Source of the DNA: an uncultured Candidatus Saccharibacteria bacterium
Lineage (GTDB): Bacteria; Patescibacteriota; Minisyncoccia; CAIUEV01; JAHKAQ01
DNA length: 64,000 nt
Direction of reading: 5' to 3'
NCBI GenBank assembly: GCA_964598205.1
Contig: CAZRBB010000001.1
Coordinates: 156,199 to 220,198, forward strand
In this document: positions 30,867 to 49,834 of the stretch, piece by piece
Position numbering within the stretch: position 1 is the stretch's first letter
How the letters are laid out: every line of letters starts with the position of its first letter
Position numbers and translations under genes: made by a program
The notes under the pieces: generated by a model
What the model was told of the DNA's origin: nothing
Seen by the model: the letters and a program-made list of their open reading frames with translations, nothing else
Databases searched by the model: none

Positions 30867-32090
30867 ATGAGCGTAGCCAATGTTCCAGTATTAAAGGACC
30901 AAAAACTAATCGATCTTTTTTTAGAGAGGGGAACAGACAAAATCTATCCTTCTCCTTCCGCTCTAAAAAAGAAATTACTTTCTGGAGAAAGAATTAAAGT
31001 TTATCAGGGCTTTGACCCCTCCGGTCCGCACCTGCATGTTGGCCATGCAATAGGCATTAGGGCTTTAAGGATTTTGCAACAGTTGGGCCACGAAGTGATT
31101 TTTTTAGTAGGGGACTATACTGCCAAAGTAGGAGATCCAGACAAAGAAACAACCAGAAAAATGTTAACCGACGAAGAAATAGAAAAAAATATGGCTGGTT
31201 GGAAAACTCAGGCGGCGCAGTTGATTGATTTTTCTGGCAAAAATCCAGTAAGTTTTGAAAGAAATTACCATTGGCTTAGTCATTTAAAAATGGAAGACAC
31301 AATCAAATTAATGTCTAATATTACCGTTCAGCGAATGTTAGAGCGGGATCTTTTTGAAAAGCGAATCAAAAACAATGAACCTCTTTATCTCCACGAATTT
31401 ATCTACCCTCTTTTGCAGGGATACGATGGTGTGGCCATGAAAGTAGATTTAGAAATTGGTGGCAGCGATCAAACTTTTAACATGCTAGTGGGGCGGGAAT
31501 TAGTAAAAAGTTATTTAGGAAAAGAAAAGTTTGTGCGCACTAATCGCATGATGGAAGCAGCCGACGGCCGAACCATGAGTAAAACCAAGGGTAACGGAAT
31601 TAATTTGGCCGATTCGCCAAAAGAAATGTACGGCAAGGCTATGGCCTATCCTGATAGTTTGATTATTACTGGGTTAGAATTATTAACGGAACTAACCCCC
31701 GCCGAAATTAAAGAATGCGAACAGGCCATAAAGAATGGTACCAATCCAATGGAAATCAAAAAAAAGTTAGCCTTTGAAATTGTCCGATTGATTAAGGGGA
31801 GTACAGAAGCCACAGAAGCCGAGCAAGCTTTTATAAAAACTTTTTCCTTACGAGAAACACCAACCGACATTCCTAAAATTAAAGCGGGTAACGAGATGGT
31901 GATTTTAGAAATTCTAAAAACCTGCCTTAAAAATGAATATTCCGGCAGTCAATTAAGAAAACTAATTACAGAAGGAGCGGTGCGCTTGGATGGCGAAAAA
32001 ATTCAAGACTTAAATCAAAAAATCACAGTCAAAAAAGGAGGGGCTGAGTTGAAGGTAGGGAAAAGAAAGTGGTTTCGACTGGTAAATTAG
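30867..32090 (+). CDS. tyrS: Tyrosyl-tRNA synthetase
   Basis: HVGH (HIGH) motif, KMSKT-like TMSKTKG, and a C-terminal S4-like domain. Confidence 0.85.
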   Translation: MSVANVPVLKDQKLIDLFLERGTDKIYPSPSALKKKLLSGERIKVYQGFDPSGPHLHVGHAIGIRALRILQQLGHEVIFLVGDYTAKVGDPDKETTRKMLTDEEIEKNMAGWKTQAAQLIDFSGKNPVSFERNYHWLSHLKMEDTIKLMSNITVQRMLERDLFEKRIKNNEPLYLHEFIYPLLQGYDGVAMKVDLEIGGSDQTFNMLVGRELVKSYLGKEKFVRTNRMMEAADGRTMSKTKGNGINLADSPKEMYGKAMAYPDSLIITGLELLTELTPAEIKECEQAIKNGTNPMEIKKKLAFEIVRLIKGSTEATEAEQAFIKTFSLRETPTDIPKIKAGNEMVILEILKTCLKNEYSGSQLRKLITEGAVRLDGEKIQDLNQKITVKKGGAELKVGKRKWFRLVN

Positions 32091-32280
32091 TTTTAGAAGA
32101 AATTTTCCTATTTTTTTCTTTTTTTTAATAATTTGTTTTTTATAATAAAGGAAATAAACTTTATTCAATCATTCATGGCAGGGGATTGGAAAGTTTTTTT
32201 CTACTTCGCTATAAAAATAATTTTCATTTACAAATTAAATTAAGAGAAATGTATAACTAATTTCTTTAATCTCGGAAAAT

Positions 32281-33060
32281 ATGACAGCAATAGATACAAA
32301 ATACTTTAAAGAATATAGAGAGAAACTTGGCTTTACTAATCAGTGCGAAGTAAAAGCATTTTGGGCTGCAAAAGATATTACCCCCACGGTTGATTATGCT
32401 TATATCAACTTACTAAATAAAAGATTGTTCGAAATTGTTGAGAAAATAAACAATCTGGTTGTTGATGAAATTAAGGTTGAAAATCTAAATGGTTTTTGTG
32501 TTGAAAACATAAAATCAGTTTTTAAAAAATTAAAAACCCACAACATTATTTCGAAACTAAACAATCAGGGGAGAAGACCCGAGGAAGTCTATTTTTCATG
32601 GATGAGAGGCTTTATAATCTCATCCTATTTCTTAAGTGCTTTAAGCAGGGTCTTTGAGGTCAATATTGAAAATATTGAATTGATTGGTGATGATGATTTG
32701 ATAAATATTGAAACTTTCAAAAGAACACCAAAGGCAGATTTACAAATCAATTTAAGAAATGGTGAGAAAGTTAGGATTGAAGTTCAGTCTGGATTTCAAG
32801 GAATAAACGACATTAAACAGCACAAGGTTTTAGAAGCTAAAAGAATAAAAAGAGAAAAAAGTGTTTCTTCATTAGTAATTCATTTCGACTTATTTAATGG
32901 CCAAGTTTCTTTTATTAAAATAGATGAGATTGAAGATGACAGTATAAATTGGATAACAAGACAACAAATGGAGGGACAAACTGTATTTAACATAGATCAA
33001 AACTATTTTGTTTGGAAATTAACTGAAAATCCTCCTAAGTTTACAGATCTATCTTTCTAA
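32281..33060 (+). CDS. Hypothetical protein, probable type II restriction endonuclease partner of the downstream C5-methyltransferase
   Basis: 259-aa ORF with no recognisable motif. It ends 3 nt before the methyltransferase start and has the same orientation and local AT-richness. The REase call is by position only. Confidence 0.4.
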   Translation: MTAIDTKYFKEYREKLGFTNQCEVKAFWAAKDITPTVDYAYINLLNKRLFEIVEKINNLVVDEIKVENLNGFCVENIKSVFKKLKTHNIISKLNNQGRRPEEVYFSWMRGFIISSYFLSALSRVFEVNIENIELIGDDDLINIETFKRTPKADLQINLRNGEKVRIEVQSGFQGINDIKQHKVLEAKRIKREKSVSSLVIHFDLFNGQVSFIKIDEIEDDSINWITRQQMEGQTVFNIDQNYFVWKLTENPPKFTDLSF

Positions 33061-33063
33061 ATC

Positions 33064-34188
33064 ATGGGAATAGTTAAAAAAATCAAAATAATAGATTTAT
33101 TTGCGGGTGTTGGAGGGTTAAGCTATGGATTCGCCCATGATAATAATTTCAAAATTGTTACTGCAAATGAAATTTTGCCCAATATGGCGAAAGCTTACAA
33201 GTTAAACCACCCTACCGTAAAAGTTTATTGCAAGGATATTAAAGAATTCGGTATTAATGATTTAGAACGGGATCTTAATATTAAAAAAGGTAATATTGAT
33301 CTAGTTATTGGCGGTCCTCCTTGTCAGGCATATTCGACAGTAGGAAAGAGATTAATTGATGATCCAAAAGGCAGATTATTCCAAGAATATTATAGAATTT
33401 TAAAAGAAATAGAACCTAAAGTTTTTCTTTTTGAAAATGTAAAAGGTCTTTTATCTATGCAAGGAGGTAAATTATTAAAGACGATCATTTCATTATTTGA
33501 ATCATTAAAATACAAAGTTGTTTATAGAGTTCTAAACTCAGCAGATTATGGGGTTCCGCAAATCAGGGAGAGAGTTATTGTAATAGGGACAAAATTAAAT
33601 TCAAAGTTTGATTATCCAGAACCGACTCATTACAATTCAGAAAATGGACAAACGGCTTTGACCCAAGAATTACTACCATATCTAACATTATCAGATGCAA
33701 TAAGCGATTTACCTTTTATTAAAAGTGGAGAAGAAAGTTTTAATTATGCGGATGAACCAAGAAATGAATTTCAAAAATTAATGAGAAATAATTCTCCTAA
33801 AAAATTAATGGATCATAACGCTCCAAACAATAATAAAAATTTGGTAAAAATTATGGAAAGTTTACCTGACGGTGGGACTCCTGAGGATTTGCCAGAAAAA
33901 CTAAGACCCAAAAGCGGTTTTGCCAATACTTATTGTAGATTATGGTGGAACAGACCAAGTACAACTATTACAAGAAACTTAAGCACTCCTTCTTCATCGA
34001 GATGTATTCATCCAAAAGCACCAAGACCATTGACCACAAGAGAAGGAGCGAGAATACAATGTTTTCCTGATAATTATTTCTTTTATGGTTCAAGGAGCGA
34101 TAAAAATTTACAAATTGGAAATGCCGTACCTACGCTTCTGTCAGTTGCATTAAAAGAATCTATTAGAAAACATTTTTTAGGAAAATAA
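33064..34188 (+). CDS. dcm: DNA (cytosine-5)-methyltransferase
   Basis: Motif I LFAGVGGLSYGF, motif IV GGPPCQAYS, motif VI ENVKGL, motif VIII QIRERVIVIG, motif X GNAVP. Confidence 0.9.
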   Translation: MGIVKKIKIIDLFAGVGGLSYGFAHDNNFKIVTANEILPNMAKAYKLNHPTVKVYCKDIKEFGINDLERDLNIKKGNIDLVIGGPPCQAYSTVGKRLIDDPKGRLFQEYYRILKEIEPKVFLFENVKGLLSMQGGKLLKTIISLFESLKYKVVYRVLNSADYGVPQIRERVIVIGTKLNSKFDYPEPTHYNSENGQTALTQELLPYLTLSDAISDLPFIKSGEESFNYADEPRNEFQKLMRNNSPKKLMDHNAPNNNKNLVKIMESLPDGGTPEDLPEKLRPKSGFANTYCRLWWNRPSTTITRNLSTPSSSRCIHPKAPRPLTTREGARIQCFPDNYFFYGSRSDKNLQIGNAVPTLLSVALKESIRKHFLGK

Positions 34189-37001: not shown

Positions 37002-37706
37002 ATGAAAATCCTAGTTATTGAAGATCAAAAAGAAAGTGCCAATTATTTAGTTAAAGGGCTAACAGACAACGGCATGGTAGTGGACTGGGAAGAAGACGGG
37101 GAGAAAGGCTTTTGGCGAGCCTGTTATACGCGTTACGATGTTATACTTTGCGATTTTCATCTTCCCAATAAAAATGGTCAAAAGATTTTGGAAGATTTAA
37201 GGGAAAAAAAGAACGAAACCCCCTTTATCATGGTAACGGTGGAGCGGGAAGTGGAAGAAAAAATAAAATCACTAGACATTGGGGCCGACGATTACATCAC
37301 CAAGCCTTTTCCCATTGGAGAGCTCTTGGCAAGGATCAGGGCAGTGTTGCGGCGGAAAATGGGAAAAAGTCCAGAAAAAAAGCTAATCTTAAAAGATATT
37401 TCTTTAGATTTAGAGAATTACAAAGCGGAATATAAAAACAAAAAACTTTCCCTAAGAAGAAAAGAATTCGATCTCCTTTATTGTTTTATGCTTAATCCTG
37501 GCCGGGTTCTTCCCCGAACTCTTTTATTAGAAAAGGTTTGGGATATGAATGCCGATCCCTTTACTAACACGGTAGATGTCCATGTTCAGAGCCTAAGAAG
37601 GAAATTGAAAGACAAAAAAGGGAAAGTTATTAGGACTATTTATGGAAGAGGCTATGAATTTTTATTAAAAAAAGATGACCGAAAGAGTTTTTTCCCAGAG
37701 AATTAA
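37002..37706 (+). CDS. OmpR-family response regulator
   Basis: Receiver domain (MKILVIEDQ..., DVILCDFHLPNKNG, KP motif) plus a winged-helix C-terminus (TVDVHVQSLRRKL...YGRGYEF). Confidence 0.9.
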   Translation: MKILVIEDQKESANYLVKGLTDNGMVVDWEEDGEKGFWRACYTRYDVILCDFHLPNKNGQKILEDLREKKNETPFIMVTVEREVEEKIKSLDIGADDYITKPFPIGELLARIRAVLRRKMGKSPEKKLILKDISLDLENYKAEYKNKKLSLRRKEFDLLYCFMLNPGRVLPRTLLLEKVWDMNADPFTNTVDVHVQSLRRKLKDKKGKVIRTIYGRGYEFLLKKDDRKSFFPEN

Positions 37707-38886
37707 TTTTCTTAAAATTGGCCTTCCTGGTTTCTTAAATTCAAAATGGAATTACTTTTTTGGTTTACAAACGCCAGCCTTAAAAGAGGTGCAATTTAAA
37801 AACAAGCTCTTAGACATCTTTTCGGGAGAGTATCAGCCTTCTCTTGGTTTATCTTCTTTTTTTAATTTGCTCCTTTCTTTCTTAAAAGTAGAAGAATTAT
37901 TTTTTTCTTTAGAGATTCCCAAAAAAGACACGGTTTTGTCTTTTAAAAAAACTAAGCATGGTCAATTAAAAACCGCGGTTCTAAAAAACAGTTCAAAAAA
38001 ACCAACCATTCCTTTTCTTTTCTTTATTTTTCCAAATTCCCAATCTAGGATTGCTTTTTACGCTACAGGGAGAAAGGTTATTGAAAAAAGTAATTTAAGA
38101 TTTATTCAAAAATCACTTACTCCCTTTTCTTTAAAGCTAGAAAACTATCTTTTATGGTTCTATTTAGAACAGGAGATTGTTTTTCAAAAAAAGAAACTTC
38201 CCCAAGATTCACTTTCTAAAAACTCTGCCACCACCTTTCTCCGTTTTAGTCATGAATTAAAAACACCACTCGCCATTGCCAAAAACTTGGTTTGGCAAGA
38301 ATTAGCCAACAGTACCGATTGTTTCTGTGAAAAGATTTCTCTTTCCTTAGAAAAGATAGCTCAATTGGCAGAAGATTTCTCGTTCTTTCTAAAACTCAAT
38401 CATGAACCAGTATTAATCAGTGATTCTTTTAGGCTCAATCTTTCAGAATCTTTAGACGAAATTTTTTGCGACTTGGAACTTTTGGCGGAAGGAAAAAAAA
38501 TAATTTTTAAAAACTATTGTTCCAAAAATATTTTTGTAATGAGTGCTAAAAAGGGAATAGAAAAAGCCTTACGCAATCTAATTTTCAACGCCTTTATTTA
38601 TAATCACTCCGGTGGAGTGGTAGAGGTTTGTTCTTCTTTGAATAAGGGAACTGTGCGCTTGGTTATTTTAGACACAGGAAAAGGCATTGCCCAAAAAGAT
38701 CTAAGCTTTATTTTTGATTTATTTTACCGTTCGCCATTAGCCAAAGAGATTTATCCAGAAGGTAGCGGCTTGGGACTCCCAATAGCTAAAAAAATAATAG
38801 AAAAACACAACGGTACTCTGGCCGCCGAAAGCGAAGAAGGTAATGGTTCAATTTTTGTAATTACTTTACCGGCCTCTTCTAATTAA
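37675..38886 (+). CDS. Sensor histidine kinase (HisKA + HATPase_c)
   Basis: H-box FSHELKTPLAIAKN, N-box LRNLIFNAFIYN, G-box GSGLGLPIAKKIIEKHNG. N-terminus overlaps the response-regulator 3' end, so the true start may lie downstream. Confidence 0.8.
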   Translation: MTERVFSQRINFLKIGLPGFLNSKWNYFFGLQTPALKEVQFKNKLLDIFSGEYQPSLGLSSFFNLLLSFLKVEELFFSLEIPKKDTVLSFKKTKHGQLKTAVLKNSSKKPTIPFLFFIFPNSQSRIAFYATGRKVIEKSNLRFIQKSLTPFSLKLENYLLWFYLEQEIVFQKKKLPQDSLSKNSATTFLRFSHELKTPLAIAKNLVWQELANSTDCFCEKISLSLEKIAQLAEDFSFFLKLNHEPVLISDSFRLNLSESLDEIFCDLELLAEGKKIIFKNYCSKNIFVMSAKKGIEKALRNLIFNAFIYNHSGGVVEVCSSLNKGTVRLVILDTGKGIAQKDLSFIFDLFYRSPLAKEIYPEGSGLGLPIAKKIIEKHNGTLAAESEEGNGSIFVITLPASSN

Positions 38887-38951: not shown

Positions 38952-41273
38952 TTAATTAACTTCAATTATCTTTTCCAAAAAAGCTAAAGGAAGAATTGCT
39001 GGTTTTTCGGCGGCAGCTTGATGATAAATTACAGTAGAAGGAGTAAGTGCTGGAAGAGTATTGGCTTCTATTAAAATTACTTCTTTTGTTTGGAGATTAA
39101 AAAAAAGATCCAAGCGAGCATAACCAGAAATACCCAAGGCCGAAGCCGCTTTTTGGGTAAGGTCTTGAACAATTTTTAAATCACGAGAAGAAAACCATTC
39201 CTCTGGTGGTGGGGTAAAATTAATACCAGTTCCACCTTGAAATTTTTCTTCTAAAGAAAGAATTTTACCAGAGGCGATTGTTTGGCTAGGAGTTAAAGAT
39301 TTTAATTGATTACCTTGGCCCAAAACTCCTACCGAAAGCTCAATCCAGCCATGAATCTTTTTTCGGTGAAGTTTCTTTCCTAAAATAGCAACCGAATCGG
39401 TTAGAATAAATTTTTCGGCTATTGCTTCAGAGCAAAAACTTTTAGGCAACTCTACGGCTGCGGGATGATCCTTGAGTAGCCCACCAGGGATACAGATTTT
39501 ATTGCTAAGAAGATGATCAAGATAAATTTTTAATTCAGCAGCACTGTTGATTTTAGCAACACCAGCAGAACAGCCATCAGACCGTGGTTTTAAGACTAAT
39601 TCTTTTGCATTAAGTTGGCTGGTAATTTTTTTCCAAAGGGCCTGGGAATCATTTTTTCCACCGAGCTTTATTAAGAACTTGGGGAGACTTTTAAGTTTTG
39701 GGTGGTTTAATTCAGTAATAACTCGCCCGGTTTCCCATTTATCCATTCCTAGTTGAGAAGCCTTAGCACCAGATCCATTAAAGGGAACTTTTAATTGAGC
39801 AAGCTCCGACTGAAAAGTACCATCTTCTCCAGTGCCACCATGGAGCGCTAAAAAAATAAAATCAAATTCTTTTGCCAGTTTTTCTAAAGTAGTTTTTTGA
39901 GGTAGAAAAAGTGATTCGCTTTTAAAATCAGCAGGGATGCCAAGTTCCCAAAGAGTCTTTACTCCCATTTCTTGGAATTTCTTTATTTTTTTGCTGTTAG
40001 TTTTGCAAATCAAATAATCGATTTCTTCTACTGTATGGTGTAGAGCAAAAAAATAAGGGATTCGCCAAAACTCTCCTTTTGGTGAAAGAAAAATAGGCTC
40101 CGGCTTAAACTTGGAAGAAGATTTTAATTTAATAAAAACATTAGTTCCCGAAAGAAGCGAGATTTGCCGCTCTGCTGTTTCTCCTCCAAAAATTACCGCT
40201 ACTTTCTTTTTCTTTATAGGCTCTCCCTTCTTTGAACTACCATTTTTAATGGTTCGCTCCGCCGCTCTTTGGGCTAAATAGTTCAAAAGCTCAGCGTGAT
40301 TTAATCCCAAAAAAGCGGCTTGTCTAAAAATAAAACTATTTTGCTCCATGCCGGTAATCGGATTTATGTCGCTAAACCAAATTTTATTATCTTCCAAAAG
40401 CCAGCCATCAAACCGTGCGTAATCTCGTAAGTTAAACAGTGAGAAAATTTTTTTAGCTTCTTCTTGGATTTTTTGAATAACCGAATCGGAAAATCGGGGA
40501 GGAGTAAAAAAATGAATATGATCGCTGGCTAAATATTTTTTTCTAAAACTAAAGAAAGAATCACTTCCCTTTTTAAAACCGATTTCGGTGGGGATAAGCG
40601 GGATTGGTTCTCCGTTTTTATTTTCTAAAATAAGGATTGTAAATTCTTTTCCTGGGCAAAATTTTTCCAAGACGGCTTCGTCCCCATAATTAAAAACATT
40701 CACTAACTTTGACTTTAATTCAGAAGGAGAATCTAAAAACTCTACTCCCAAAGAAGAGCCGGACCGATTGGGTTTTAAAACATAACGACCCTTTTTAATT
40801 TTTGGTAGGACTCCTCCTTTTTTTATTAATTCCGTGCCCCAAGTATAAAAACCGTTTGCTTTTAATTTTTTTTGGGCTAGGTGTTTATCAATAGTTTCCT
40901 GGGCCCCTTTTTCTTTTACACCAACAAAATTTACCTTGGCATTAGTCAGTATCTTTTGGATTTCTCCATCTTCACCAAACTCGCCGTGCATAATTGGCCA
41001 AACCAAGTCTTGAGATCCTAAATATTTTTTAAACTGGGAAGTGGTTAATTTTTGGCCAATCTTTTTGATTTTGAATTCAAAATCAAAAACGGTATTGGAA
41101 TAAAGCTGGAAAGAGGGGATAAGGTAAGGAGTCTTTTGGGAATCAAAATAAACAATAGAAATTAAAAAGTGTTCTTTGTCTAAATTATCTAAAACCGAAC
41201 GAGTAGAATTTAGAGAAATGCTTTTTTCTGGTGATGGCCCTCCACAAAGTAGGGCAGTTTTTATTTTAGGCAT
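38952..41273 (-). CDS. ddl: Fused tandem D-alanine--D-alanine ligase (two complete Ddl-like ATP-grasp modules in one 773-aa protein)
   Basis: Module 1: ALLCGGPSPEKSISL, HGEFGEDGEIQ, KPNRSGSSLGV, ARFDG...INPITG. Module 2: VAVIFGGETAERQISL, HGGTGEDGTFQ, KPRSDGCSAGV, ARLDLFF...EANTLPA. Confidence 0.8.
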   Translation of the reverse strand: MPKIKTALLCGGPSPEKSISLNSTRSVLDNLDKEHFLISIVYFDSQKTPYLIPSFQLYSNTVFDFEFKIKKIGQKLTTSQFKKYLGSQDLVWPIMHGEFGEDGEIQKILTNAKVNFVGVKEKGAQETIDKHLAQKKLKANGFYTWGTELIKKGGVLPKIKKGRYVLKPNRSGSSLGVEFLDSPSELKSKLVNVFNYGDEAVLEKFCPGKEFTILILENKNGEPIPLIPTEIGFKKGSDSFFSFRKKYLASDHIHFFTPPRFSDSVIQKIQEEAKKIFSLFNLRDYARFDGWLLEDNKIWFSDINPITGMEQNSFIFRQAAFLGLNHAELLNYLAQRAAERTIKNGSSKKGEPIKKKKVAVIFGGETAERQISLLSGTNVFIKLKSSSKFKPEPIFLSPKGEFWRIPYFFALHHTVEEIDYLICKTNSKKIKKFQEMGVKTLWELGIPADFKSESLFLPQKTTLEKLAKEFDFIFLALHGGTGEDGTFQSELAQLKVPFNGSGAKASQLGMDKWETGRVITELNHPKLKSLPKFLIKLGGKNDSQALWKKITSQLNAKELVLKPRSDGCSAGVAKINSAAELKIYLDHLLSNKICIPGGLLKDHPAAVELPKSFCSEAIAEKFILTDSVAILGKKLHRKKIHGWIELSVGVLGQGNQLKSLTPSQTIASGKILSLEEKFQGGTGINFTPPPEEWFSSRDLKIVQDLTQKAASALGISGYARLDLFFNLQTKEVILIEANTLPALTPSTVIYHQAAAEKPAILPLAFLEKIIEVN

Positions 41274-41822: not shown

Positions 41823-42140
41823 ATGCAAAAAATAACTGGAATTAAATTTTATCTACTAGCTCTACTACTTTTGGTTTTTTGTTTAACCTCTTTGGGTTTT
41901 GCTCTAGCCAAAGATGAAGACTCCCCAACAAATAATTCAACCAGCAGTTCGGATGTTATTATTGGACCAGAAGGGAACGAAATAAAAACAACAACCGACA
42001 TAAGCACAGAAACAGTTATTCAAAAGGACAGCGACGGCGATGGACTCCTAGACGAACAAGATCCTCACCCCAATATTCCGGAAATATATATTGTGACCGA
42101 TGATAACAGAAATGGCATTGTTGATCAGTTCGAGAAATAA
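41823..42140 (+). CDS. Secreted protein with calcium-binding-like DxDxDG repeats (thrombospondin type 3-like)
   Basis: Signal peptide plus DSDGDGLLDEQDPHPN. Confidence 0.4.
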   Translation: MQKITGIKFYLLALLLLVFCLTSLGFALAKDEDSPTNNSTSSSDVIIGPEGNEIKTTTDISTETVIQKDSDGDGLLDEQDPHPNIPEIYIVTDDNRNGIVDQFEK

Positions 42141-42143
42141 AAA

Positions 42144-43073
42144 ATGAAGAAATCAGACATAGTAGAAAAAGAATTTAAGGCGCTAGGAACAGACATCTAT
42201 TTACAACTAGTTTGCAGTAGTAACTCAAAAAAAAGAGCAAGCAAAGATTTGAGTGTCGTAGCCGATTTCTATTTGGCTACAGAAAATATTTTTAGTCGCT
42301 TTAAAAAAGACAGTGAGCTTAATTTTTTTAATCAAAATTTAGGAAATTTTTTTAAAGCTTCGCCACATTTTCTGTTAGTAGCGAAAGAAATTCTACGCTA
42401 CCATGCATTAAGCAAGGGGATGTTTGATCCGCGGGTAATTGAAGTCTTAGAATGGGTTGGCTACAAGGAAGATTTTAAAAAAAACCAGCCATTGCCTGCA
42501 GCTGGGAAATCTTTTCCAAAAATAAATATTAAAAATCTCAAAAAAGATTTGGTAATTCGGGGCAAGGAAGTCTTGTTCAATCATCGGATGGATTTTGCGG
42601 GGATCACTAAGGGGCACATTACAGATACAGCGGGGGAAATGTTAAAATCTTTTGGTTGGGAAAATTTCTTAATAGATTCTGGTGGTGACATGTGCGCTTT
42701 TGGGAAGGATCAAAAACAGGAAAGTTGGAAAGTTGATATAGAAGGAATTACAGAAGAAAAAATATTACTTACGCTAAACAACGAAGCGATCGCTACTTCG
42801 GGGATTGGTAGGCGAAAATGGGAAAGCAAGGGAAAAAAATTTCATCATTTAATTAATCCTAAGAACCCAGAAAAATTTTCTTTTGATTTAAAATCGGTTA
42901 CGGTTATTTCTCCGACAGCCATTGAAGCGGATTTTTGGGCAAAAGTTTTGTTTTTATTAGGCAAAGAGGATGGAAGAGAGTTTTCTCTGAACAACAAAAT
43001 TAAAAGCATCTTTTTAGATTATCGTGGCGATGCCTTTCTTTCCCTAGAAATGAAAAAAAATCACAACCAATGA
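42144..43073 (+). CDS. apbE: FAD:protein FMN transferase (ApbE family)
   Basis: FKALGTDIYLQLV start and GITKGHITDTAGEMLKSFG...LIDSGGDM match ApbE conserved blocks. Confidence 0.65.
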   Translation: MKKSDIVEKEFKALGTDIYLQLVCSSNSKKRASKDLSVVADFYLATENIFSRFKKDSELNFFNQNLGNFFKASPHFLLVAKEILRYHALSKGMFDPRVIEVLEWVGYKEDFKKNQPLPAAGKSFPKINIKNLKKDLVIRGKEVLFNHRMDFAGITKGHITDTAGEMLKSFGWENFLIDSGGDMCAFGKDQKQESWKVDIEGITEEKILLTLNNEAIATSGIGRRKWESKGKKFHHLINPKNPEKFSFDLKSVTVISPTAIEADFWAKVLFLLGKEDGREFSLNNKIKSIFLDYRGDAFLSLEMKKNHNQ

Positions 43074-43912
43074 AAAAGTTATTATTCATTATCGCAATAA
43101 TTATTACAGGAGCAAGCTTTAGCGTGGCATTGGCAGAAGAACAAAAAGTGGATTATAAAAATAATCCAGTCCTAGATAGTGATTTAGACGGACTAACAGA
43201 CGAAGGAGAAAAACAGATTTACAATACCGATCCTAATATTGCCGACACAGACGGGGACGGTATTTTTGACGGGGCAGAAGTGCTTACCAACACCAATCCA
43301 AAAGACAATACTAGCCCAAGCGCTATCCAAGAAACCACTATTTATAAATATCCAGAAGAAGAAAGAATTCTCTGGTCTTGGTATTTATCTAGGTCGGGGG
43401 GCTTGATTTCTTTTCTTCTCCTTTATTTATCTATTTTTTTCGGCGTAGCCATCCGTTTGCCGTTTTTAAAAAAGATTACCAAACCAATCTACTCCTTTAG
43501 TATTCATCGCTGGCTTTCGGTCCAGGCGCTTATTTTTGCTCTTATCCATTCCCTTGTTTTACTGACGGATAAATATCTTAAATTTAGTTTTAAAGATATT
43601 TTTGTACCTTTTGCTTCCACTTACAAGCCAGAAATGATTACGCTCGGTGTTTTAGGGATGTATTCCATGATCGCTCTTCTTCTTACTTCTTATTTTCGTA
43701 AGTTTATTTCTTATCGTATTTGGCGGCTTGCCCACTTTTTAAACATTGTTCTCTATGCAGTTGCTTTTACTCATGCTTTCTATTTAGGAACAGATTTAAA
43801 GGCTGGTTTAATGCGGGAAATTTTTATTGGGTTAAATATTTTATTAGCTGGATTATTTTTATTAAATCTCTTGTTGAAAATAAAAAAGCCGCCCCAAGAG
43901 GGGCGGCTTTAG
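43070..43912 (+). CDS. Ferric-reductase-like (bis-haem b) transmembrane domain protein with N-terminal extracytoplasmic Ca-binding-like repeats
   Basis: DSDLDGLTDEGE...DTDGDGIFDG repeats. TM helices carry paired His residues 13 apart (HRWLSVQALIFALIHS and AHFLNIVLYAVAFTHA), typical of FRD/YedZ-type haem ligation. Confidence 0.55.
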   Translation: MKKLLFIIAIIITGASFSVALAEEQKVDYKNNPVLDSDLDGLTDEGEKQIYNTDPNIADTDGDGIFDGAEVLTNTNPKDNTSPSAIQETTIYKYPEEERILWSWYLSRSGGLISFLLLYLSIFFGVAIRLPFLKKITKPIYSFSIHRWLSVQALIFALIHSLVLLTDKYLKFSFKDIFVPFASTYKPEMITLGVLGMYSMIALLLTSYFRKFISYRIWRLAHFLNIVLYAVAFTHAFYLGTDLKAGLMREIFIGLNILLAGLFLLNLLLKIKKPPQEGRL

Positions 43913-44521: not shown

Positions 44522-45193
44522 ATGAATTTTGACATTTTAACTATTTTTCCTGCCATTCTGGACTCTTATTTTAAAGAGGGAGTAGTTGGTCGGGCAGTGA
44601 AGAATAAAAAAATCAATATTCAAACTCACAATTTGCGAGATTGGACCAAAGACAAACACCGAACGGTAGACGATACTCCTTATGGTGGTGGCGCCGGCAT
44701 GGTCTTAAAGATAGAGCCGATCGCCTTAGCGCTTAAAGATTTAAAAAAGAAAGATTCTAAACGAACACGGACTATTCTTTTTTCGGCTAAGGGCACTTTA
44801 TTTAACCAAAAAAAAGCACAGGATCTTTCTAGTTATGAGCGATTAATTTTTGTTTGCGGTCGCTATGAAGGGGTAGATGAAAGAGTTGTTAAGCACTTAG
44901 TCGATGAAGAAATTTCCATTGGAGAGTTTGTTCTTTCTGGTGGAGAACTTGCCGCCGCCGTTCTGATTGATTCAGTTTCGCGGCTCCTACCTGGAGTCTT
45001 GGGGAATGAGGAATCTTTAATTGAAGAGTCGTTTCAAAAAAAAGGAATGGCTGAATATCCACAGTACACTAAGCCAGAAGATTATAAAGGCTGGAAGGTG
45101 CCTCCAGTGCTTCTTTCTGGCAATCATTCATTAATACGGGTTTGGCGAGAAAAACAAAACAAGAAAAATAATGGAAAAAAAACCAGCCGATAA
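44522..45193 (+). CDS. trmD: tRNA (guanine37-N1)-methyltransferase
   Basis: MNFDILTIFPAILDSYF...PYGGGAGMVLK... TrmD SPOUT motifs. Start set at the internal ATG (44522) rather than track start 44408. Confidence 0.9.
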   Translation: MNFDILTIFPAILDSYFKEGVVGRAVKNKKINIQTHNLRDWTKDKHRTVDDTPYGGGAGMVLKIEPIALALKDLKKKDSKRTRTILFSAKGTLFNQKKAQDLSSYERLIFVCGRYEGVDERVVKHLVDEEISIGEFVLSGGELAAAVLIDSVSRLLPGVLGNEESLIEESFQKKGMAEYPQYTKPEDYKGWKVPPVLLSGNHSLIRVWREKQNKKNNGKKTSR

Positions 45194-46268
45194 AATTCTC
45201 TTAATCGCTATCTTCTCTTTGGTGATTTTTGGATTGATTATGATTTTCTCCGCAAGCGTAGTGCTTTCTTTGGACAATTTTGGTGTTCCTTATTACTATT
45301 TTTATCATCAACTTTTTTACGGAATTATTCCTGGATTAATACTGTGGGGGATTATTCAGCATATTGATTATCGGCGTTGGGAAAAATTTGCACCAATTAT
45401 TTTTTTAATTGCCCTCTTACTTTTATTCGCTGTATTAATCCCCGGTATTGGTCAAACCCAAAAGGGTGCGGCTCGCTGGATTTATATTGGCTCTTTCAAT
45501 TTTCAGCCGGCAGAAATAGCAAAATTGGCCCTAGCACTTTATCTTGCTGCTTGGCTAGCTTCTAAGGGCGAAAAAATAAAAAGTTTTTCGGAAGGATTTG
45601 TCCCTTTTGTGGCTATTGTGGGTATGTTGGCTTTCTTGATTATTAATCAACCAGACATTGGTACATTAGGAGTGATTTCTTTAATGGCGCTAACCATCTT
45701 TTTCTTGGCTCGTTGTCGTTTAAGTCACTTTTTTCTTTTGATTGTTTCTGGCATTTCTTTTTTGTTTATTATGATAAAGATTGCCCCTTATCGTTTAGCA
45801 CGCCTAACTGTCTTTCTTAATCCTGGTGCCGATCCGCAGGGGATTGGCTACCAGATCAATCAGGCGCTTTTGGCAATTGGCTCAGGAGGATTATGGGGAG
45901 CGGGGTTAGGACACAGCAAGCAAAAATTTCTTTACTTACCGGAACCTATTGGAGACTCAATTTATGCTATAATAGCCGAAGAACTTGGTCTTTTGGGGAG
46001 TGTTTTTCTTTTAGCTCTTTTTTTAACAGTGGGAATAAGAGGAATGCTTATTGCCAAAAGAACCCCGGATCTTTTTGGAAAACTTTTGGCTGGGGGAATT
46101 ACTGCTTGGATTGTTTTTCAGGCGTTAATCAATATGGCGGCAATCACTTCCTTAATTCCTTTAACGGGAGTTCCGTTACCATTTATTTCTTACGGCAGTA
46201 CGGCTCTAGTAGTGGTTCTTTCGGCTTCGGGGATCCTTTTAAATATCTCTAAAAAAACAGATCCATGA
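45171..46268 (+). CDS. ftsW: SEDS-family peptidoglycan glycosyltransferase FtsW/RodA
   Basis: 10-TM protein, LIAIFSLVIFGLIMIFSAS N-terminus. Sits upstream of murG-murC-murB. Confidence 0.85.
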   Translation: MEKKPADKILLIAIFSLVIFGLIMIFSASVVLSLDNFGVPYYYFYHQLFYGIIPGLILWGIIQHIDYRRWEKFAPIIFLIALLLLFAVLIPGIGQTQKGAARWIYIGSFNFQPAEIAKLALALYLAAWLASKGEKIKSFSEGFVPFVAIVGMLAFLIINQPDIGTLGVISLMALTIFFLARCRLSHFFLLIVSGISFLFIMIKIAPYRLARLTVFLNPGADPQGIGYQINQALLAIGSGGLWGAGLGHSKQKFLYLPEPIGDSIYAIIAEELGLLGSVFLLALFLTVGIRGMLIAKRTPDLFGKLLAGGITAWIVFQALINMAAITSLIPLTGVPLPFISYGSTALVVVLSASGILLNISKKTDP

Positions 46269-47413
46269 AAATTATTCTAACAGGTGGTGGAACTGGCGGT
46301 CATCTTTTCCCCCTTTTAGCAGTCGCCCGAGAATTAAAAAGAATTAAAGGCCCAGAACTGGAACTTCTTTTTTTGGGGCCGATTAATCGTTTTTCTAAAA
46401 TAATTTTGGAAGAAAATGGGATTAAGACTTCTGGAATAATGGCCGGAAAATGGCGTCGCTATTCATCTTTTCAAAATATTGTGGATATTTTTAAATTTCC
46501 CATTGGCTTGGTCCAAAGTCTTTATAATGTTTGGAAGTTTATGCCAGATGCAGTGCTAGCTAAAGGCGGCTATGGTAGCGTTCCCCCAACAATCGCTGCC
46601 AGAATTTATCTTATTCCAATCTTAACCCACGAATCAGACGCCGTTCCCGGATATGCTAATCGTTTTTTAGCCAAAATTTCGGACAAAATTGCCGTTTCTT
46701 TTCCGTCTGCCGAAAAATATTTTAAGGCGGATAAAACAGTGCTTGTTGGAAATCCTATCCGCTCGGAAATTACTGCCGGTAACTTGGAAGAGGCACAGCG
46801 GATCTTTGGACTAAAAATAGATAAGCCAGTGCTTTTGGTATTAGGAGGGAGTCAGGGATCAAAACTAATCAACGAAAGAATTATAGAAATTCTTCCTCAA
46901 ATTTTGGAATTTTCCCAGGTGATTCACCAAATAGGGGAAGGTAATTTAGAGGCAGTAAAAAAACAAGTAGCTACTTGGGGGATTAAAATAGGTTATGCCG
47001 ATTATCATCCCTACGAATTCATTGGGCCGGAATTGATTCATGCTTACAGGGCTGCGGAATTAGTTATTTCTCGAGCGGGCGCTTCTACCGTTACAGAAAT
47101 TGCGGCAACAAAAAAACCTTCTATCCTTGTTCCTCTAGGAACAAGCGCGAATAATCATCAGCTTTTTAATGCCTATGCGGCAGCCAGTGTTGGTGGTGCT
47201 CTAGTAATTAAAGAAGAAAATTTTAAAGGCAATATTTTAATTAGTAAAATAGAAGAACTGATCAACAATCAAAGAGAACGAGAAGAAATGGGGCAAAAGA
47301 TTTTTGGGTTTTACAATCCAAAAGCCGCCACCGCATTAGCCGAAAGCTTAATCGGACTTTCTGAGGCGGGGAAGGTAGAGGGGGAGGGACTTTTTGACAA
47401 AAAAGTTATTTAA
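46265..47413 (+). CDS. murG: UDP-N-acetylglucosamine--N-acetylmuramyl-(pentapeptide) pyrophosphoryl-undecaprenol GlcNAc transferase
   Basis: ILTGGGTGGHLFPLLAVA N-terminal motif. 382 aa. Confidence 0.9.
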   Translation: MKIILTGGGTGGHLFPLLAVARELKRIKGPELELLFLGPINRFSKIILEENGIKTSGIMAGKWRRYSSFQNIVDIFKFPIGLVQSLYNVWKFMPDAVLAKGGYGSVPPTIAARIYLIPILTHESDAVPGYANRFLAKISDKIAVSFPSAEKYFKADKTVLVGNPIRSEITAGNLEEAQRIFGLKIDKPVLLVLGGSQGSKLINERIIEILPQILEFSQVIHQIGEGNLEAVKKQVATWGIKIGYADYHPYEFIGPELIHAYRAAELVISRAGASTVTEIAATKKPSILVPLGTSANNHQLFNAYAAASVGGALVIKEENFKGNILISKIEELINNQREREEMGQKIFGFYNPKAATALAESLIGLSEAGKVEGEGLFDKKVI

Positions 47414-48848
47414 TTTAAATAAATCAATGGATTCTGAGCTAATAATCGATTTTTCTAAAATAAAAAAAGTGCATCTTATTGGAATCAAAGGAGTGGCAAT
47501 GACTTCTTTGGCCGAAATATTAGCCGGTCACGGAATTAAAATTAGTGGTTCGGATACGGAAGAAATTTTTTTCACCGATGCCCTGCTTAAAAAGATTAAT
47601 GCACGACTCTTTGTGGGATTCAAGAAAGAAAATTTGTTGTCTGCCAATGCGGATTTAATTATTTATTCTACTGCTTATAATCCCAAGGCTAATCCAGAAC
47701 TAGCCGCCGCCTTAAAAAGTGAACCACCAGTTTTGAGCTATCCAGAAGCCTTGGGTCTTCTTTTTAATCAAAGCATTGGAGTGGCAGTTTCGGGAACGCA
47801 TGGCAAAACCACCACCACAGCCATGCTGGGGGAGATTCTTCAAAAGAACAAAAAAGAACCAACAGTTTTGGTGGGGAGTAAAATTATTAATTGGGATTCC
47901 GCTTCCTTGATTGGTAACGGTCCACACTTTATTGCCGAAGCAGATGAATACCAAAACAAGTTGCGATTTTTAAATCCCAAGGGAGCAATCACTACTAACA
48001 TTGATTTTGACCATCCCGACTTTTTTTTAAATCCAGAAGAATACCAAAAAGTTTTTCGGGATTTTTTTTGTCGTCTTCCCCGAAACGGATTTTTAGTTTT
48101 TAACGCCGATGATTCGGAAAGCCAAAGGGCAGTAAAAGGACTTGCAACTAAAATGATTTCTTTTGGTAAAAATCAAGCGGCTGATTTTCGATTAGAAAAA
48201 AGAGAAGTAGGTAACGCCGGGTTTCAAACGGTGTCGTTTACTTTTTCCGAGCATCTATTTTCTTTTAAACTTTTTCTAACTGGTGAACATAATGCTCTAA
48301 ACGCTTTGGCGGCGATTGCGGCGGCCCAAGAATTAGGAGTGTCAATAGAAGAATCATTGCTGGCATTAGAAGGTTTTTTAGGGAGTGAACGGCGATTCCA
48401 AAAAATGGGAGAGAAAGAAGGGGTGTTATTTTATGATGATTATGCGCATCATCCTGCAGAAATAGAAGCCACACTTTTAGGGGCGAAAGAATTTTTCCCC
48501 GGCAAAAAAATAATCGTTGCCTTTCATCCTCATACTTTTACCAGAACTAAAAGATTACTTCCGGAATTTGCGCTTGCGCTTACCATGGCCGACGAGTGTT
48601 TTATCTTGGATATTTACGCCTCAGCGAGAGAAGAAGCTGGAAAAATCAAAGTTCATGCTCGCGATTTAGTTTCCCTAATTAATAAAGAGGGAGGCCGCGC
48701 TTTTTACGCTCCTCAAATTAAAGACTTAACTAAGGCGGTGATAGATAAATTAAAACCCAATACTCTTTTTTTAACCATGGGCGCGGGTGATATTTGGAAG
48801 GCGCATGATCAGCTTTTAAAAAATAATCTTTTAACTTCTCCATGCTAA
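47394..48848 (+). CDS. murC: UDP-N-acetylmuramate--L-alanine ligase
   Basis: GIKGVAMTSLAEILAGHG and VSGTHGKTTTTAML Mur-ligase P-loop. Confidence 0.9.
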   Translation: MTKKLFNLNKSMDSELIIDFSKIKKVHLIGIKGVAMTSLAEILAGHGIKISGSDTEEIFFTDALLKKINARLFVGFKKENLLSANADLIIYSTAYNPKANPELAAALKSEPPVLSYPEALGLLFNQSIGVAVSGTHGKTTTTAMLGEILQKNKKEPTVLVGSKIINWDSASLIGNGPHFIAEADEYQNKLRFLNPKGAITTNIDFDHPDFFLNPEEYQKVFRDFFCRLPRNGFLVFNADDSESQRAVKGLATKMISFGKNQAADFRLEKREVGNAGFQTVSFTFSEHLFSFKLFLTGEHNALNALAAIAAAQELGVSIEESLLALEGFLGSERRFQKMGEKEGVLFYDDYAHHPAEIEATLLGAKEFFPGKKIIVAFHPHTFTRTKRLLPEFALALTMADECFILDIYASAREEAGKIKVHARDLVSLINKEGGRAFYAPQIKDLTKAVIDKLKPNTLFLTMGAGDIWKAHDQLLKNNLLTSPC

Positions 48849-49834
48849 CCATTAAAAAAGATTTTAACATCAATGGCCTAGGGTCTTTTAAAATTGGTGG
48901 CACGGCTGATTTTTACGCGGAGGTAGGCGCCAAAGAAGACTTAGAACCACTTTTTGCCGAAATCAAGAAAAGCAACAAGCCCTACTTTATTATTGGCGGG
49001 GCAACTAATGTTCTTTTCCCCACCAAGAACTATCCCGGTTGGATCGTAAAAATTAATCTTTGGAAACTAGAAGCTACTCCGCCAACTTACATAGCAGATG
49101 CCGGTATCCCCTTGGCAGTTCTGGTCCAAAAAACCAATCAAGATGGTTCTTCTGGGTTACAAAAGTTGGCTGGGATTCCCGGAACGCTTGGCGGGGCTAT
49201 TCGTGGCAATGCTGGGGCGTTTGGTGTTTCGATTGGAGAAAAAATTCAAAAAGTAGAGATTTTTCGCCCAGCTACCAGTACCTTTGAAACTTTTTCTTCT
49301 GGGGAATGTGCTTTTAGTTATCGCTCTAGTGTTTTTTCCCAAAAAAACGCTTTATCCCAAAACAATAATCTAGTAATTGTTTCGGCAGAAATTTTATTAG
49401 AAGAAGGAGACGCCACAGAACTAGAAAAAGAATCGGCCTTGATTTTGGATTCTAGGAAAAACCAACCTTACGCCAAGCATCCTTCCGTGGGAAGCGTTTT
49501 TAAAAATGTGGTAATTTCGGAAATAGAAAATAAGACGGCGCGTGAACGACTTTTATTTAATTACACAAAAGATAGAGAGAACAAAAACAAACCAACAGCT
49601 GGTTCTAAAAAAGATCCTCCACTATCCATTCCGGCCGGTTATTTAGTTGAAGAGGCAGGATTAAAAGGAAAAAGAATTGGTGGCGCGGAAGTTTCCCCGG
49701 AACACGGCAATATTATTGTAAACCTAGGCAACGCAACCGCCGAAGATGTGGTGATGTTGGTGGGCATAATCAAAACCAAGGTCAGAGATGATCTAGGTAT
49801 TCAGCTAAAAGAGGAAATGACTTATGTTGGCTAA
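48842..49834 (+). CDS. murB: UDP-N-acetylenolpyruvoylglucosamine reductase
   Basis: FAD-binding N-terminus (FKIGGTADFY, IIGGATNVLF) and a C-terminal MurB domain. Confidence 0.85.
   Translation: MLTIKKDFNINGLGSFKIGGTADFYAEVGAKEDLEPLFAEIKKSNKPYFIIGGATNVLFPTKNYPGWIVKINLWKLEATPPTYIADAGIPLAVLVQKTNQDGSSGLQKLAGIPGTLGGAIRGNAGAFGVSIGEKIQKVEIFRPATSTFETFSSGECAFSYRSSVFSQKNALSQNNNLVIVSAEILLEEGDATELEKESALILDSRKNQPYAKHPSVGSVFKNVVISEIENKTARERLLFNYTKDRENKNKPTAGSKKDPPLSIPAGYLVEEAGLKGKRIGGAEVSPEHGNIIVNLGNATAEDVVMLVGIIKTKVRDDLGIQLKEEMTYVG

Follow-up and report, generated by a model that had tools for sequence, protein, structure and literature searches.

A 773-aa protein encoded in the window (the whole 64 kb stretch of DNA analysed here) contains two Ddl modules in one chain and is most likely the D-Ala-D-Ala ligase of the cell, of the same two-module type as the plant chloroplast DDL. 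The architecture itself is known already, as the family includes the plant chloroplast enzyme; the preliminary description had considered it unusual for peptidoglycan synthesis, a view which finds no support in a large, widespread family whose architecture had been described for plant DDL (PMC9954125). We think it probable, on a joint reading of the evidence below, that the protein is the cell's D-Ala-D-Ala ligase with both modules active, that the modules form a pseudo-dimer and that the second of them (module B) makes D-Ala-D-Ala. In the proposed pathway alanine racemase would supply D-alanine, the two-module enzyme would join two D-alanines, spending ATP, and MurF would attach the dipeptide to UDP-MurNAc-tripeptide. 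The gene and its parts are placed in the window as follows:

38952..41273, minus strand: two-module Ddl gene, one intact open-reading frame with Pfam Ddl_N twice and Ddl_C twice.
40239..41273, minus strand: module A (aa 1-345), a Ddl module of canonical size with a Glu16-Ser173-Tyr247 triad.
40212..40238, minus strand: linker between modules A and B (aa 346-354, SSKKGEPIK), short and unconserved.
38955..40211, minus strand: module B (aa 355-773), a divergent Ddl module with insertions and a Glu368-Cys568-Phe678 triad.

The open-reading frame begins with ATG, contains zero ambiguous bases and has its sole stop codon at the end of the 773 codons. Each half was scanned on its own against the Pfam gathering scores (34.6 bits for PF01820, 24 bits for PF07478), and both exceeded both: half A with 72.3 and 93.9 bits, half B with 76.8 and 54.8 bits, respectively. 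The halves share 24% identity with one another (E 6e-15) and both match E. coli DdlB (half A E 9e-19, half B E 3e-13). The presence of two Ddl modules in one protein, first noted from the sequence alone, is thereby confirmed, and every motif quoted at that stage was located in the protein: ALLCGG (aa 7-12), HGEFGEDG (aa 96-103), KPNRSGSSLGV (aa 167-177) and ARFDGW (aa 286-291) in module A, and VAVIFGG (aa 358-364), HGGTGEDG (aa 478-485), KPRSDGCSAGV (aa 562-572) and ARLDLFF (aa 719-725) in module B. The modules had further been described as two complete ligases, which stands insofar as both are complete and Ddl-type, but half B, at 419 aa, is not of canonical size: it carries insertions at ca. 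aa 395-465 and 590-645, and Ddl models match it piecewise.

There is next to no chance that the fusion is an artefact in which errors of sequencing or assembly merged two adjacent ddl genes. Nine contigs carry the identical 773-aa product, three of which come from three different sequencing runs, and the best 120 homologues are 758-848 aa long with 97-100% query coverage; a frameshift or missed stop between the halves, for which we checked following the preliminary description, is excluded because of these nine identical copies and the full-length cover among the best 120 homologues. Over 100 distinct clusters of full-length proteins share the architecture, which recurs in 580 or more genome stretches, and plant genomes encode the same Ddl-Ddl fusion. 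Several matches of ~420 aa cover module B, and the one traced (P0132) was considered as a standalone module-B gene; its start, at nucleotide 20 in a contig of 1,994 bp, lies at the contig edge, and it is therefore a fragment and no evidence for an unfused module B.

Against the curated NCBIfam Ddl model (TIGR01205, cutoff 245.65 bits) the whole protein scores 299.2 bits, a score which is the sum of two modules; singly, module A reaches 170.7 and module B 134.1 bits, and because neither alone attains the cutoff, both modules are regarded as divergent. The single modules also stay below the cutoffs of the Van-type ligase models, the best score being 130.3 against 495 bits for VanG, with at most 75.8 against 775 bits for VanA, whilst module B scores 61.8 against 550 bits with the D-Ala-D-Lac model NF000206. 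The MurC-Ddl model NF011171 gives 130 against 1015 bits, and Pfam finds no Mur ligase domain in the 773-aa protein. AF2 models the protein with confidence (pLDDT 91.5, pTM 0.91), leaving only the linker and two lid loops as soft regions: the mean pLDDT is 64 at aa 341-350 (the linker region), 64-71 at aa 231-250 (the module A omega-loop), as expected of a mobile lid, and 55 at aa 671-680 (the module B omega-loop). Foldseek matched this model to Ddl, VanA and VanG chains in the PDB (E 1e-27, target TM-scores 0.75-0.88), and model and matches together display the three-domain Ddl fold. Dimers are a recurrent feature of Ddl (PMC6899670), and we infer that modules A and B pack together as the subunits of the Ddl homodimer do, only covalently joined.

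A search pattern from the module B omega-loop, [LV]EEKF[QM]GG, picked out full-length relatives in no fewer than 580 species-representative genome stretches, and two-module relatives span Patescibacteria, Chlamydiae, Dependentiae, Bdellovibrionota, Proteobacteria, Actinomycetes, Clostridia and Bacteroidia. Plant and green-algal DDL belong to the same family: residues 94-962 of the date-palm DDL (P0286) align with residues 4-772 of the 773-aa protein at 34% identity (E 2.7e-160), with 26 of 26 tracked residues identical, and the date-palm protein shares 42-45% identity with other bacterial members. The order of the modules, Tyr-type first and Cys/Phe-type second, is common to the date-palm, grass and green-algal proteins. 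Three family motifs lie in the protein:

41070..41108, minus strand: QLYSNTxxDFxFK, family-specific insertion in the N-domain of module A (aa 56-68).
40020..40043, minus strand: LHHTVEEI, family-specific insertion in the N-domain of module B (aa 411-418).
39204..39260, minus strand: omega-loop motif LSLEEKFQGGTGINFTPPP of module B (aa 672-690), a family signature.

In the first of these Y58, D64 and F65 are invariant and S59, N60, T61, P62, D66, F67 and K68 at least 90% conserved; the motif is missing from E. coli DdlB and found in plant DDL. The second, with H413, T414 and E417 invariant, lies inside an insertion relative to DdlB and has the equivalent LRHTTEEV in plant DDL, whilst LSLEEKFQGGTGINFTPPP is almost invariant across the two-module family and present in the date-palm, grass and green-algal DDL. 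Across the family the columns of QLYSNTxxDFxFK, HTxEE and LSxEEKFQGGTGxNxTPPP are invariant or nearly so, and all three are visible in the plant sequences. The plastid enzymes of plants and green algae (Physcomitrium PpDDL, Arabidopsis AtDDL) share module order and family-specific motifs with the 773-aa protein, but are nuclear-encoded and longer (850-970 aa or more), with N-terminal extensions that are presumably transit peptides; the bacterial protein is the shorter. The Tetraselmis protein differs further in its extra SAP domains and in a Val that replaces the Phe of module B. Plant DDL has been described as a fused pair of DDL enzymes, the loss of which in moss halts D-alanine dimerisation and plastid division (PMC9954125); moss requires the enzyme for its plastid peptidoglycan. 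The two-module type is the sole DDL of moss, which makes an ordinary D-Ala-D-Ala pentapeptide and, when treated with D-cycloserine, builds up the tripeptide (PMC9434261).

Residue by residue, each module of the 773-aa protein has the ATP, Mg and catalytic positions of DdlB (E15, H63, E68, K97, K144, E180, E187, K215, R255, D257, E270 and N272), with Asp for E270 in module A, and the catalytic residues are retained in both modules across 121 and about 180 relatives. The module A equivalents of DdlB E15, H63, E68, K97, S150, E187, K215, Y216, R255, D257 and N272 recur unchanged in 175-181 of 181 relatives, the omega-loop pair being located as follows:

40533..40538, minus strand: Lys246-Tyr247 in the omega-loop of module A, equivalents of DdlB K215-Y216, each in 180 of 181 relatives.

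At the DdlB K144 position of module A, 178 of the 181 relatives have K and three have R; the lowest count falls on the E180 position (E in 156, Q in 25), whilst the E270 position is Asp in 177 and the L282 position Phe in 160. In module B, E368, H478 and E483, together with the ATP, Mg and transition-state residues K512, K562, E620, E645, K677, R720, D722, E736 and N738, are retained by 177-180 of the 180 relatives. The alignment checked whether one half lacked the catalytic residues and found the full set in both, so that neither module looks like a dead pseudo-enzyme; the regulatory pseudo-enzyme half offered in the preliminary description is at odds with this retention of all tracked residues in ~180 relatives and with the equal constraint on the two halves. 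We consider from these alignments that both modules are probably catalytically active.

It is very unlikely that module B is no ligase in vivo and serves as a structural dimer substitute, or as an ATP- or dipeptide-binding regulator, leaving the chemistry to module A. Module B is the more divergent of the two in its insertions, lower model scores and broken Glu-Ser-Tyr triad, and because Ddl normally acts as a dimer (PMC6899670), a fused partner could be kept for stability alone. However, its ATP, Mg and transition-state residues are kept, as would not be expected of a purely structural unit; positions that are at least 98% invariant are even slightly more numerous in module B (74 of 418) than in module A (62 of 345). 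In Arabidopsis with the first half disrupted, moreover, the second half is still expressed and plastid peptidoglycan still labelled, which its authors read as possible residual activity of the second half (PMC9954125).

The surroundings of the gene were read both in the window and around its relatives. The window has a cluster of peptidoglycan genes, annotated by Pfam on L001, a locus with the identical gene (window position = 51274 minus L001 position):

45171..49834, plus strand: ftsW-murG-murC-murB cluster (genomic context).

The murC of this cluster was confirmed at 47427-48845 of the window. There is no ddl after murB and no other Ddl-like sequence in the 64 kb window, and neither alr nor murF lies within it. 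An OmpR-type two-component pair adjoins the two-module gene in convergent orientation. Around the relatives, only two families recur among 117 flanking ORFs, alanine racemase (10 ORFs) and Mur ligase (6 ORFs); an initial neighbour clustering had pooled the two, because MurF-Alr fusion proteins bridged them, and Pfam separated them. In several loci alanine racemase follows the two-module gene on the same strand after 2-10 bp, in others a MurF-type ligase (TIGR01143 above cutoff) comes directly after it, and natural Ddl-Ddl-MurF and Ddl-Ddl-MurF-Alr fusions occur, all of which links the gene to the D-alanine branch. In some genomes the gene occupies the ddl slot, as in an alphaproteobacterial one where it immediately precedes ftsQ-ftsA; this and the lack of another ddl in a window with murC and murB speak for a housekeeping role. 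In Actinomycetes it looks accessory and not housekeeping; in the one locus examined in detail (L039) it has a separate alr beside it. A D-cycloserine-insensitive bypass through an Actinomycete Alr-MurF-Ddl-Ddl arrangement is unsupported, plastid division in moss being D-cycloserine-sensitive (PMC9434261). A Van-like operon was also looked for, but no VanH-, VanX- or VanY-type partner recurs in the 117 flanking ORFs.

The two modules differ at the residues of the DdlB Glu15-Ser150-Tyr216 triad, which are E16, S173 and Y247 in module A and E368, C568 and F678 in module B. This break of the Glu-Ser-Tyr triad in module B counts against the D-Ala-D-Ala reading: all characterised D-Ala-D-Ala ligases are reported with the triad, Y216-E15-S150 has been linked to whether a dipeptide or a depsipeptide is made, and a Tyr-to-Phe exchange at the triad site (Y216F) confers depsipeptide activity on E. 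coli DdlB (PMC3378904). The cysteine codon is located as follows:

39570..39572, minus strand: Cys568 codon of module B, at the DdlB Ser150 position, Cys in 174 of 180 relatives.

Ser takes this position in 6 of the 180, two of the six being from Clostridia genome loci, and the Cys is also found in the plant and algal proteins; Phe678, at the DdlB Tyr216 position, is present in 180 of 180 and Thr747, at the DdlB Ser281 position, in 177 of 180.

This signature could mean that the enzyme is bifunctional, with module A, which retains Tyr and Ser, making D-Ala-D-Ala and module B joining D-alanine to some other nucleophile (D-lactate, a further D-2-hydroxy acid or another amino acid, for instance), a possibility which we rate as rather unlikely. 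The cell would then carry two types of precursor end, or a second small peptide. The triad is tied to specificity, and natural Phe-type ligases of Lactobacillus and Leuconostoc make D-Ala-D-Lac (PMC3378904); the split between the A and B sites is kept from Patescibacteria to plants, implying that both sites are needed, and the retention of DDL without MurF in many angiosperms and some green algae hints at a further role (PMC4815162). It is similarly doubtful that this split reflects a division of labour fixed from Patescibacteria to land plants in which the Glu-Cys-Phe site of module B performs a different ligation. Among the 117 flanking ORFs, however, neither a VanH-type dehydrogenase nor a VanX/VanY peptidase recurs, and module B falls far short of the cutoffs of the curated models for D-Ala-D-Lac and D-Ala-D-Ser ligases, as with the 61.8 bits against 550 given above. 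The DdlB Y216F mutant reportedly retains D-Ala-D-Ala activity and, if so, Phe alone does not set the product. The standard D-Ala-D-Ala pentapeptide has, moreover, been reported among the peptidoglycan precursors of moss (PMC9434261). The early suggestion of two ligase specificities may hold in view of the two sites, invariant Glu-Cys-Phe in module B and Glu-Ser-Tyr in module A, whilst the lack of recurring Van partners and the ordinary moss pentapeptide speak against it. Returning to the D-Ala-D-Ala reading, we infer that the product of module B is still D-Ala-D-Ala and that it is the selectivity or kinetics that have changed.

Each module shares the Ddl fold and catalytic residues with canonical Ddl (E. 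coli DdlB, T. thermophilus Ddl); module A retains Glu-Ser-Tyr, and the two-module gene can fill the ddl slot before ftsQ-ftsA. Canonical Ddl is, in contrast, a homodimer of subunits of ~306-360 aa, whereas the 773-aa protein has two modules per chain, each alone below the NCBIfam Ddl cutoff. Its module A differs by an Asp at the Glu270 position and a Phe at that of Leu282, its module B by two insertions and by Cys, Phe and Thr in place of Ser150, Tyr216 and Ser281. With the Phe-type D-Ala-D-lactate ligases (LmDdl2, PDB 1EHI, which is among the Foldseek matches of the AF2 model) module B shares the Phe at the DdlB Tyr216 position, but it has Cys for the triad Ser, which the L. reuteri ligase keeps (F258-E17-S186; PMC3378904), and is fused to a Tyr-type module.

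As an antibiotic target, Ddl is inhibited by D-cycloserine and yields the product to which vancomycin binds. The two-module form seems to serve as the working Ddl in plant plastids and in many reduced or host-dependent bacteria, its carriers including Patescibacteria, environmental Chlamydiae, Dependentiae and Bdellovibrionota. The literature searched yielded enzyme assays for neither the bacterial members nor the separated halves of any member, no biochemical dissection of the two halves, and no mention of the conserved Cys/Phe/Thr signature of the second module at the dipeptide-versus-depsipeptide residues; what bears on D-Ala-D-Ala synthesis by the family is the genetic and metabolite evidence from moss. 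If module B did perform a second ligation, there would be an unrecognised second product of the D-alanine branch in many host-dependent bacteria, which could explain why DDL is kept in many plants without MurF. An answer from a tractable bacterial member such as the 773-aa protein would also bear on whether AtDDL works as a ligase, as a whole or through its C-terminal half alone.

Fusions within the peptidoglycan precursor pathway are known from MurC-Ddl of Chlamydia, MurE-MurF and MurF-alanine racemase, but Ddl-Ddl is unlike these, as the fused units are paralogues of one enzyme and not separate steps; a 2023 survey of Mur chimeras has MurE-MurF, MurC-Ddl, MurC-MurB, MurG-MurC and MurD-FtsW, and no Ddl-Ddl (PMC10214165). 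Duplicated ATP-grasp modules in one chain, both active and with diverged substrates, also occur in the large subunit of carbamoyl-phosphate synthetase, an analogy only; that enzyme belongs to a different ATP-grasp family with different chemistry.

The open-reading frame at 38952-41273 (-) comprises 773 codons with an ATG start, a lone terminal stop and no ambiguous bases, and its product contains two Ddl N-terminal and two Ddl C-terminal ATP-grasp domains (Pfam), which bears out the preliminary description of two Ddl modules in one protein; every motif quoted there lies at its expected place. Scanned separately, half A (module A, aa 1-345; 72.3 and 93.9 bits) and half B (module B, aa ~355-773; 76.8 and 54.8 bits) both exceed the Pfam gathering thresholds of 34.6 bits (N-terminal) and 24 bits (C-terminal ATP-grasp). 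Each half alone falls below the curated NCBIfam Ddl cutoff of 245.65 bits (A 170.7, B 134.1), the whole protein passing at 299.2 bits only by summing its two modules, and none of the curated Van-type and D-Ala-D-Lac models came near cutoff with it. The halves share 24% identity (E 6e-15) and E. coli DdlB matches them at 24-25% identity (E 9e-19 for A, 3e-13 for B); this mutual divergence and near-equal distance from DdlB point to an old duplication or fusion. Half B, at 419 aa, carries insertions relative to DdlB at about aa 395-465 and 590-645.

The observation stands and the gene is genuine: an artefactual frameshift or assembly join is ruled out by the identical protein on nine contigs (the three shown represent three different sequencing runs) and by widespread full-length relatives. 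The best 120 database matches are 758-848 aa long, with 41-58% identity at 97-100% query coverage, and in species-representative genomes relatives are encoded in at least 580 genome stretches among the 600 matches listed. The fusion had been thought unusual; the two-module architecture proved neither rare nor unknown. Among the matches listed, full-length proteins occur in Patescibacteria (Peregrini-, Gracili-, Sacchari-, Uhr- and Nomurabacteria; matches in Kaiser- and Berkelbacteria are partial and contig-truncated), Parachlamydiaceae, Bdellovibrionota, Dependentiae, Clostridia, Planctomycetota, Holophagae, Verrucomicrobia, Alphaproteobacteria (including Micavibrio), Gammaproteobacteria and Actinomycetes (including a cultured 11-Mb Dactylosporangium), Bacteroidia are the source of a ~900-aa subgroup, and the closest relatives are Moranbacteria-labelled proteins (57-58% identity). 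Module B alone, searched against 1.84 billion representatives, gave 274 matches at E ≤ 1e-30, nearly all of them 760-920 aa proteins aligned in their C-terminal half. Several matches of ~420 aa were candidates for standalone module-B genes, and the one traced (P0132) is a contig-edge fragment.

The window protein and plant DDL belong to the same two-module DDL family, which was already known and of which the former is a bacterial representative. It aligns over aa 4-772 with date-palm DDL (P0286, 968 aa; E 2.7e-160, 34% identity), and the two proteins agree at all 26 tracked residues of modules A and B; the date-palm protein shares 42-45% identity with other bacterial members (among them P0062, L045 and Peregrinibacteria proteins). 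One long representative, from the green alga Tetraselmis astigmatica (P0240, 1580 aa), differs in its N-terminal SAP domains, its large insertions and, in module B, a Val where the omega-loop Lys is otherwise followed by Phe; its Ddl-Ddl region as query retrieved date palm, a grass (P0287) and Pseudoscourfieldia (P0289), with Patescibacteria members ranking directly after the plant and algal proteins. Moss Ddl has been placed closest to the Fibrobacteres-Chlorobi-Bacteroidetes group, and D-cycloserine causes a tripeptide to accumulate in moss (PMC9434261). Plant DDL has been described as two DDL enzymes fused together; moss Ddl knockouts lose D-alanine dimerisation and form giant chloroplasts, and it "has yet to be shown" that AtDDL, or just the C-terminal half of it, works as a ligase (PMC9954125; see also PMC12681378, PMC7432710). 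The compact bacterial protein would be a convenient system for resolving the role of the second module.

Each half was aligned to DdlB over 121 relatives and then over ~180, down to ~28% identity. Module A retains E16, H96, E101, K130, K167, S173, S174, E203, E210, K246, Y247, R287, D289, N304, G308 and S313, mostly conserved in 175-181 of 181 relatives; E203 (DdlB E180) is Glu in 156 relatives, the other 25 having Gln, DdlB Glu270 is replaced by Asp and Leu282 usually by Phe. Module B keeps E368, H478, E483, K512, K562, S569, E620, E645, K677, R720, D722, E736 and N738 in 177-180 of 180 relatives, yet it differs from module A: the Ser150 position is Cys568 in 174 of 180, Ser281 is Thr747 in 177 and Tyr216 is Phe678 in every one. 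The six relatives with Ser at 568 (L035 and L069 from Clostridia, P0130, P0183, P0217 and P0263) retain Phe678. The N-domain insertions carry near-invariant, family-specific motifs, QLYSNTxxDFxFK in module A and HTVEE in module B. Positions at least 98% invariant number 62 of 345 in half A and 74 of 418 in half B, and because the halves are equally constrained a dead pseudo-enzyme half, a regulatory version of which had been proposed as one option, is unlikely; the modules differ but both look catalytically competent. Literature searches found nothing on the bacterial two-module proteins or on A/B asymmetry, and this universal, asymmetric second-module signature seems to be undescribed so far.

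The Tyr-to-Phe change in module B falls in the Glu15-Ser150-Tyr216 triad linked to dipeptide versus depsipeptide specificity, in which Y216F gains depsipeptide activity and Phe occurs naturally in the Lactobacillus ligase responsible for D-Ala-D-Lac ends and resistance to vancomycin (PMC3378904). Module B could therefore make a second, different product, which we consider improbable. Two findings speak against a D-lactate route: no VanH-, VanX- or VanY-type family recurs among 117 flanking ORFs of related loci, and the moss precursor is the standard D-Ala-D-Ala pentapeptide (PMC9434261).

An AF2 model (76-sequence family alignment) reached pLDDT 91.5 and pTM 0.91, with confidence dipping only at the linker (aa 341-350) and the omega/lid loops (aa 231-250 and 671-680); the high pTM suggests that the modules are held in a fixed mutual orientation. 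Foldseek against the PDB matched nothing but single-module chains, those of Ddl, VanA, VanG and LmDdl2 (target TM-score 0.75-0.88, query at most 0.38), and no solved structure spanning the tandem arrangement. As dimers are a recurrent feature of Ddl (PMC6899670), we infer that the two modules may pack as a covalent pseudo-dimer.

Neighbours and fusions in relatives link the family to peptidoglycan precursor synthesis, and within it to the D-alanine branch. The comparison of neighbours covered ~75 related loci, and a census of 117 flanking ORFs had alanine racemase (10 ORFs) and Mur ligase (6 ORFs) as its top families. An alanine racemase gene follows on the same strand after 2-10 bp in L006 and L017 (Pfam-checked) and in L019, L023 and L027 (assigned by similarity and size); a MurF-type ligase (TIGR01143, above cutoff) follows directly in an alphaproteobacterium and a Bdellovibrionales genome, and a fused MurF-alanine racemase adjoins the gene in Actinomycetes and a Holophagae genome (L037, L038, L039, L047, L053, L078). 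In an alphaproteobacterial genome the two-module ddl sits directly upstream of ftsQ-ftsA, the classical ddl slot. In a Mycobacteriales MAG (L039:2775-9465) the MurF-Alr and tandem-Ddl pair stands beside a separate alr-tsaE, and is thus a second, accessory D-alanine module. Natural fusions join Ddl-Ddl to MurF (P0150, 1262 aa) and to MurF-Alr (P0228, 1638 aa), the latter holding the whole D-alanine branch in one chain; Ddl-Ddl is absent from the Mur-pathway chimeras listed in a survey of 2023 (PMC10214165). The best-supported reading is that the window protein, as a two-module DDL, would serve the organism as its D-Ala-D-Ala ligase, with both modules probably active; alanine racemase would supply its substrate and it would in turn feed MurF.

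In two metagenomic proteins of ~1250 aa (P0221, P0232) a PASTA domain (about aa 1020-1080) comes after Ddl-Ddl, an odd combination since PASTA is normally extracellular, in penicillin-binding proteins and PknB-type kinases. Another (P0206, 1180 aa) has three Ddl N-terminal stretches by Pfam, which may reflect either a third module or an error in gene calling. In the 6.1-Mb genome carrying P0062, the two-module ddl is followed ~2 kb downstream by a gene of the FemAB family (L004:14460-15551), whose members take part in making peptidoglycan cross-bridges.

The 64-kb window holds no second Ddl-like sequence, alr or murF, and no ddl, ftsQ or ftsA was found after murB in its cell-wall cluster:

45171-49834 (+), ftsW-murG-murC-murB cluster, trmD before and tRNA synthetase after

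A 1.2-Mb relative is syntenic with the window. On the + strand, 37002-37706 encodes an OmpR-type response regulator and 37675-38886 a histidine kinase, tail to tail with the two-module ddl; the response regulator is found beside the ddl in the 1.2-Mb relative (L085) as well. The ORFs at 41823-42140 and 43070-43912 (+) encode aspartate-rich DxDxDG-type repeats with an ApbE-family gene between them, the second also having a weak Pfam TSP3_bac match and a Ferric_reduct domain. At 32001-34000 G+C falls to 0.30, against 0.35-0.42 in the rest of the window.
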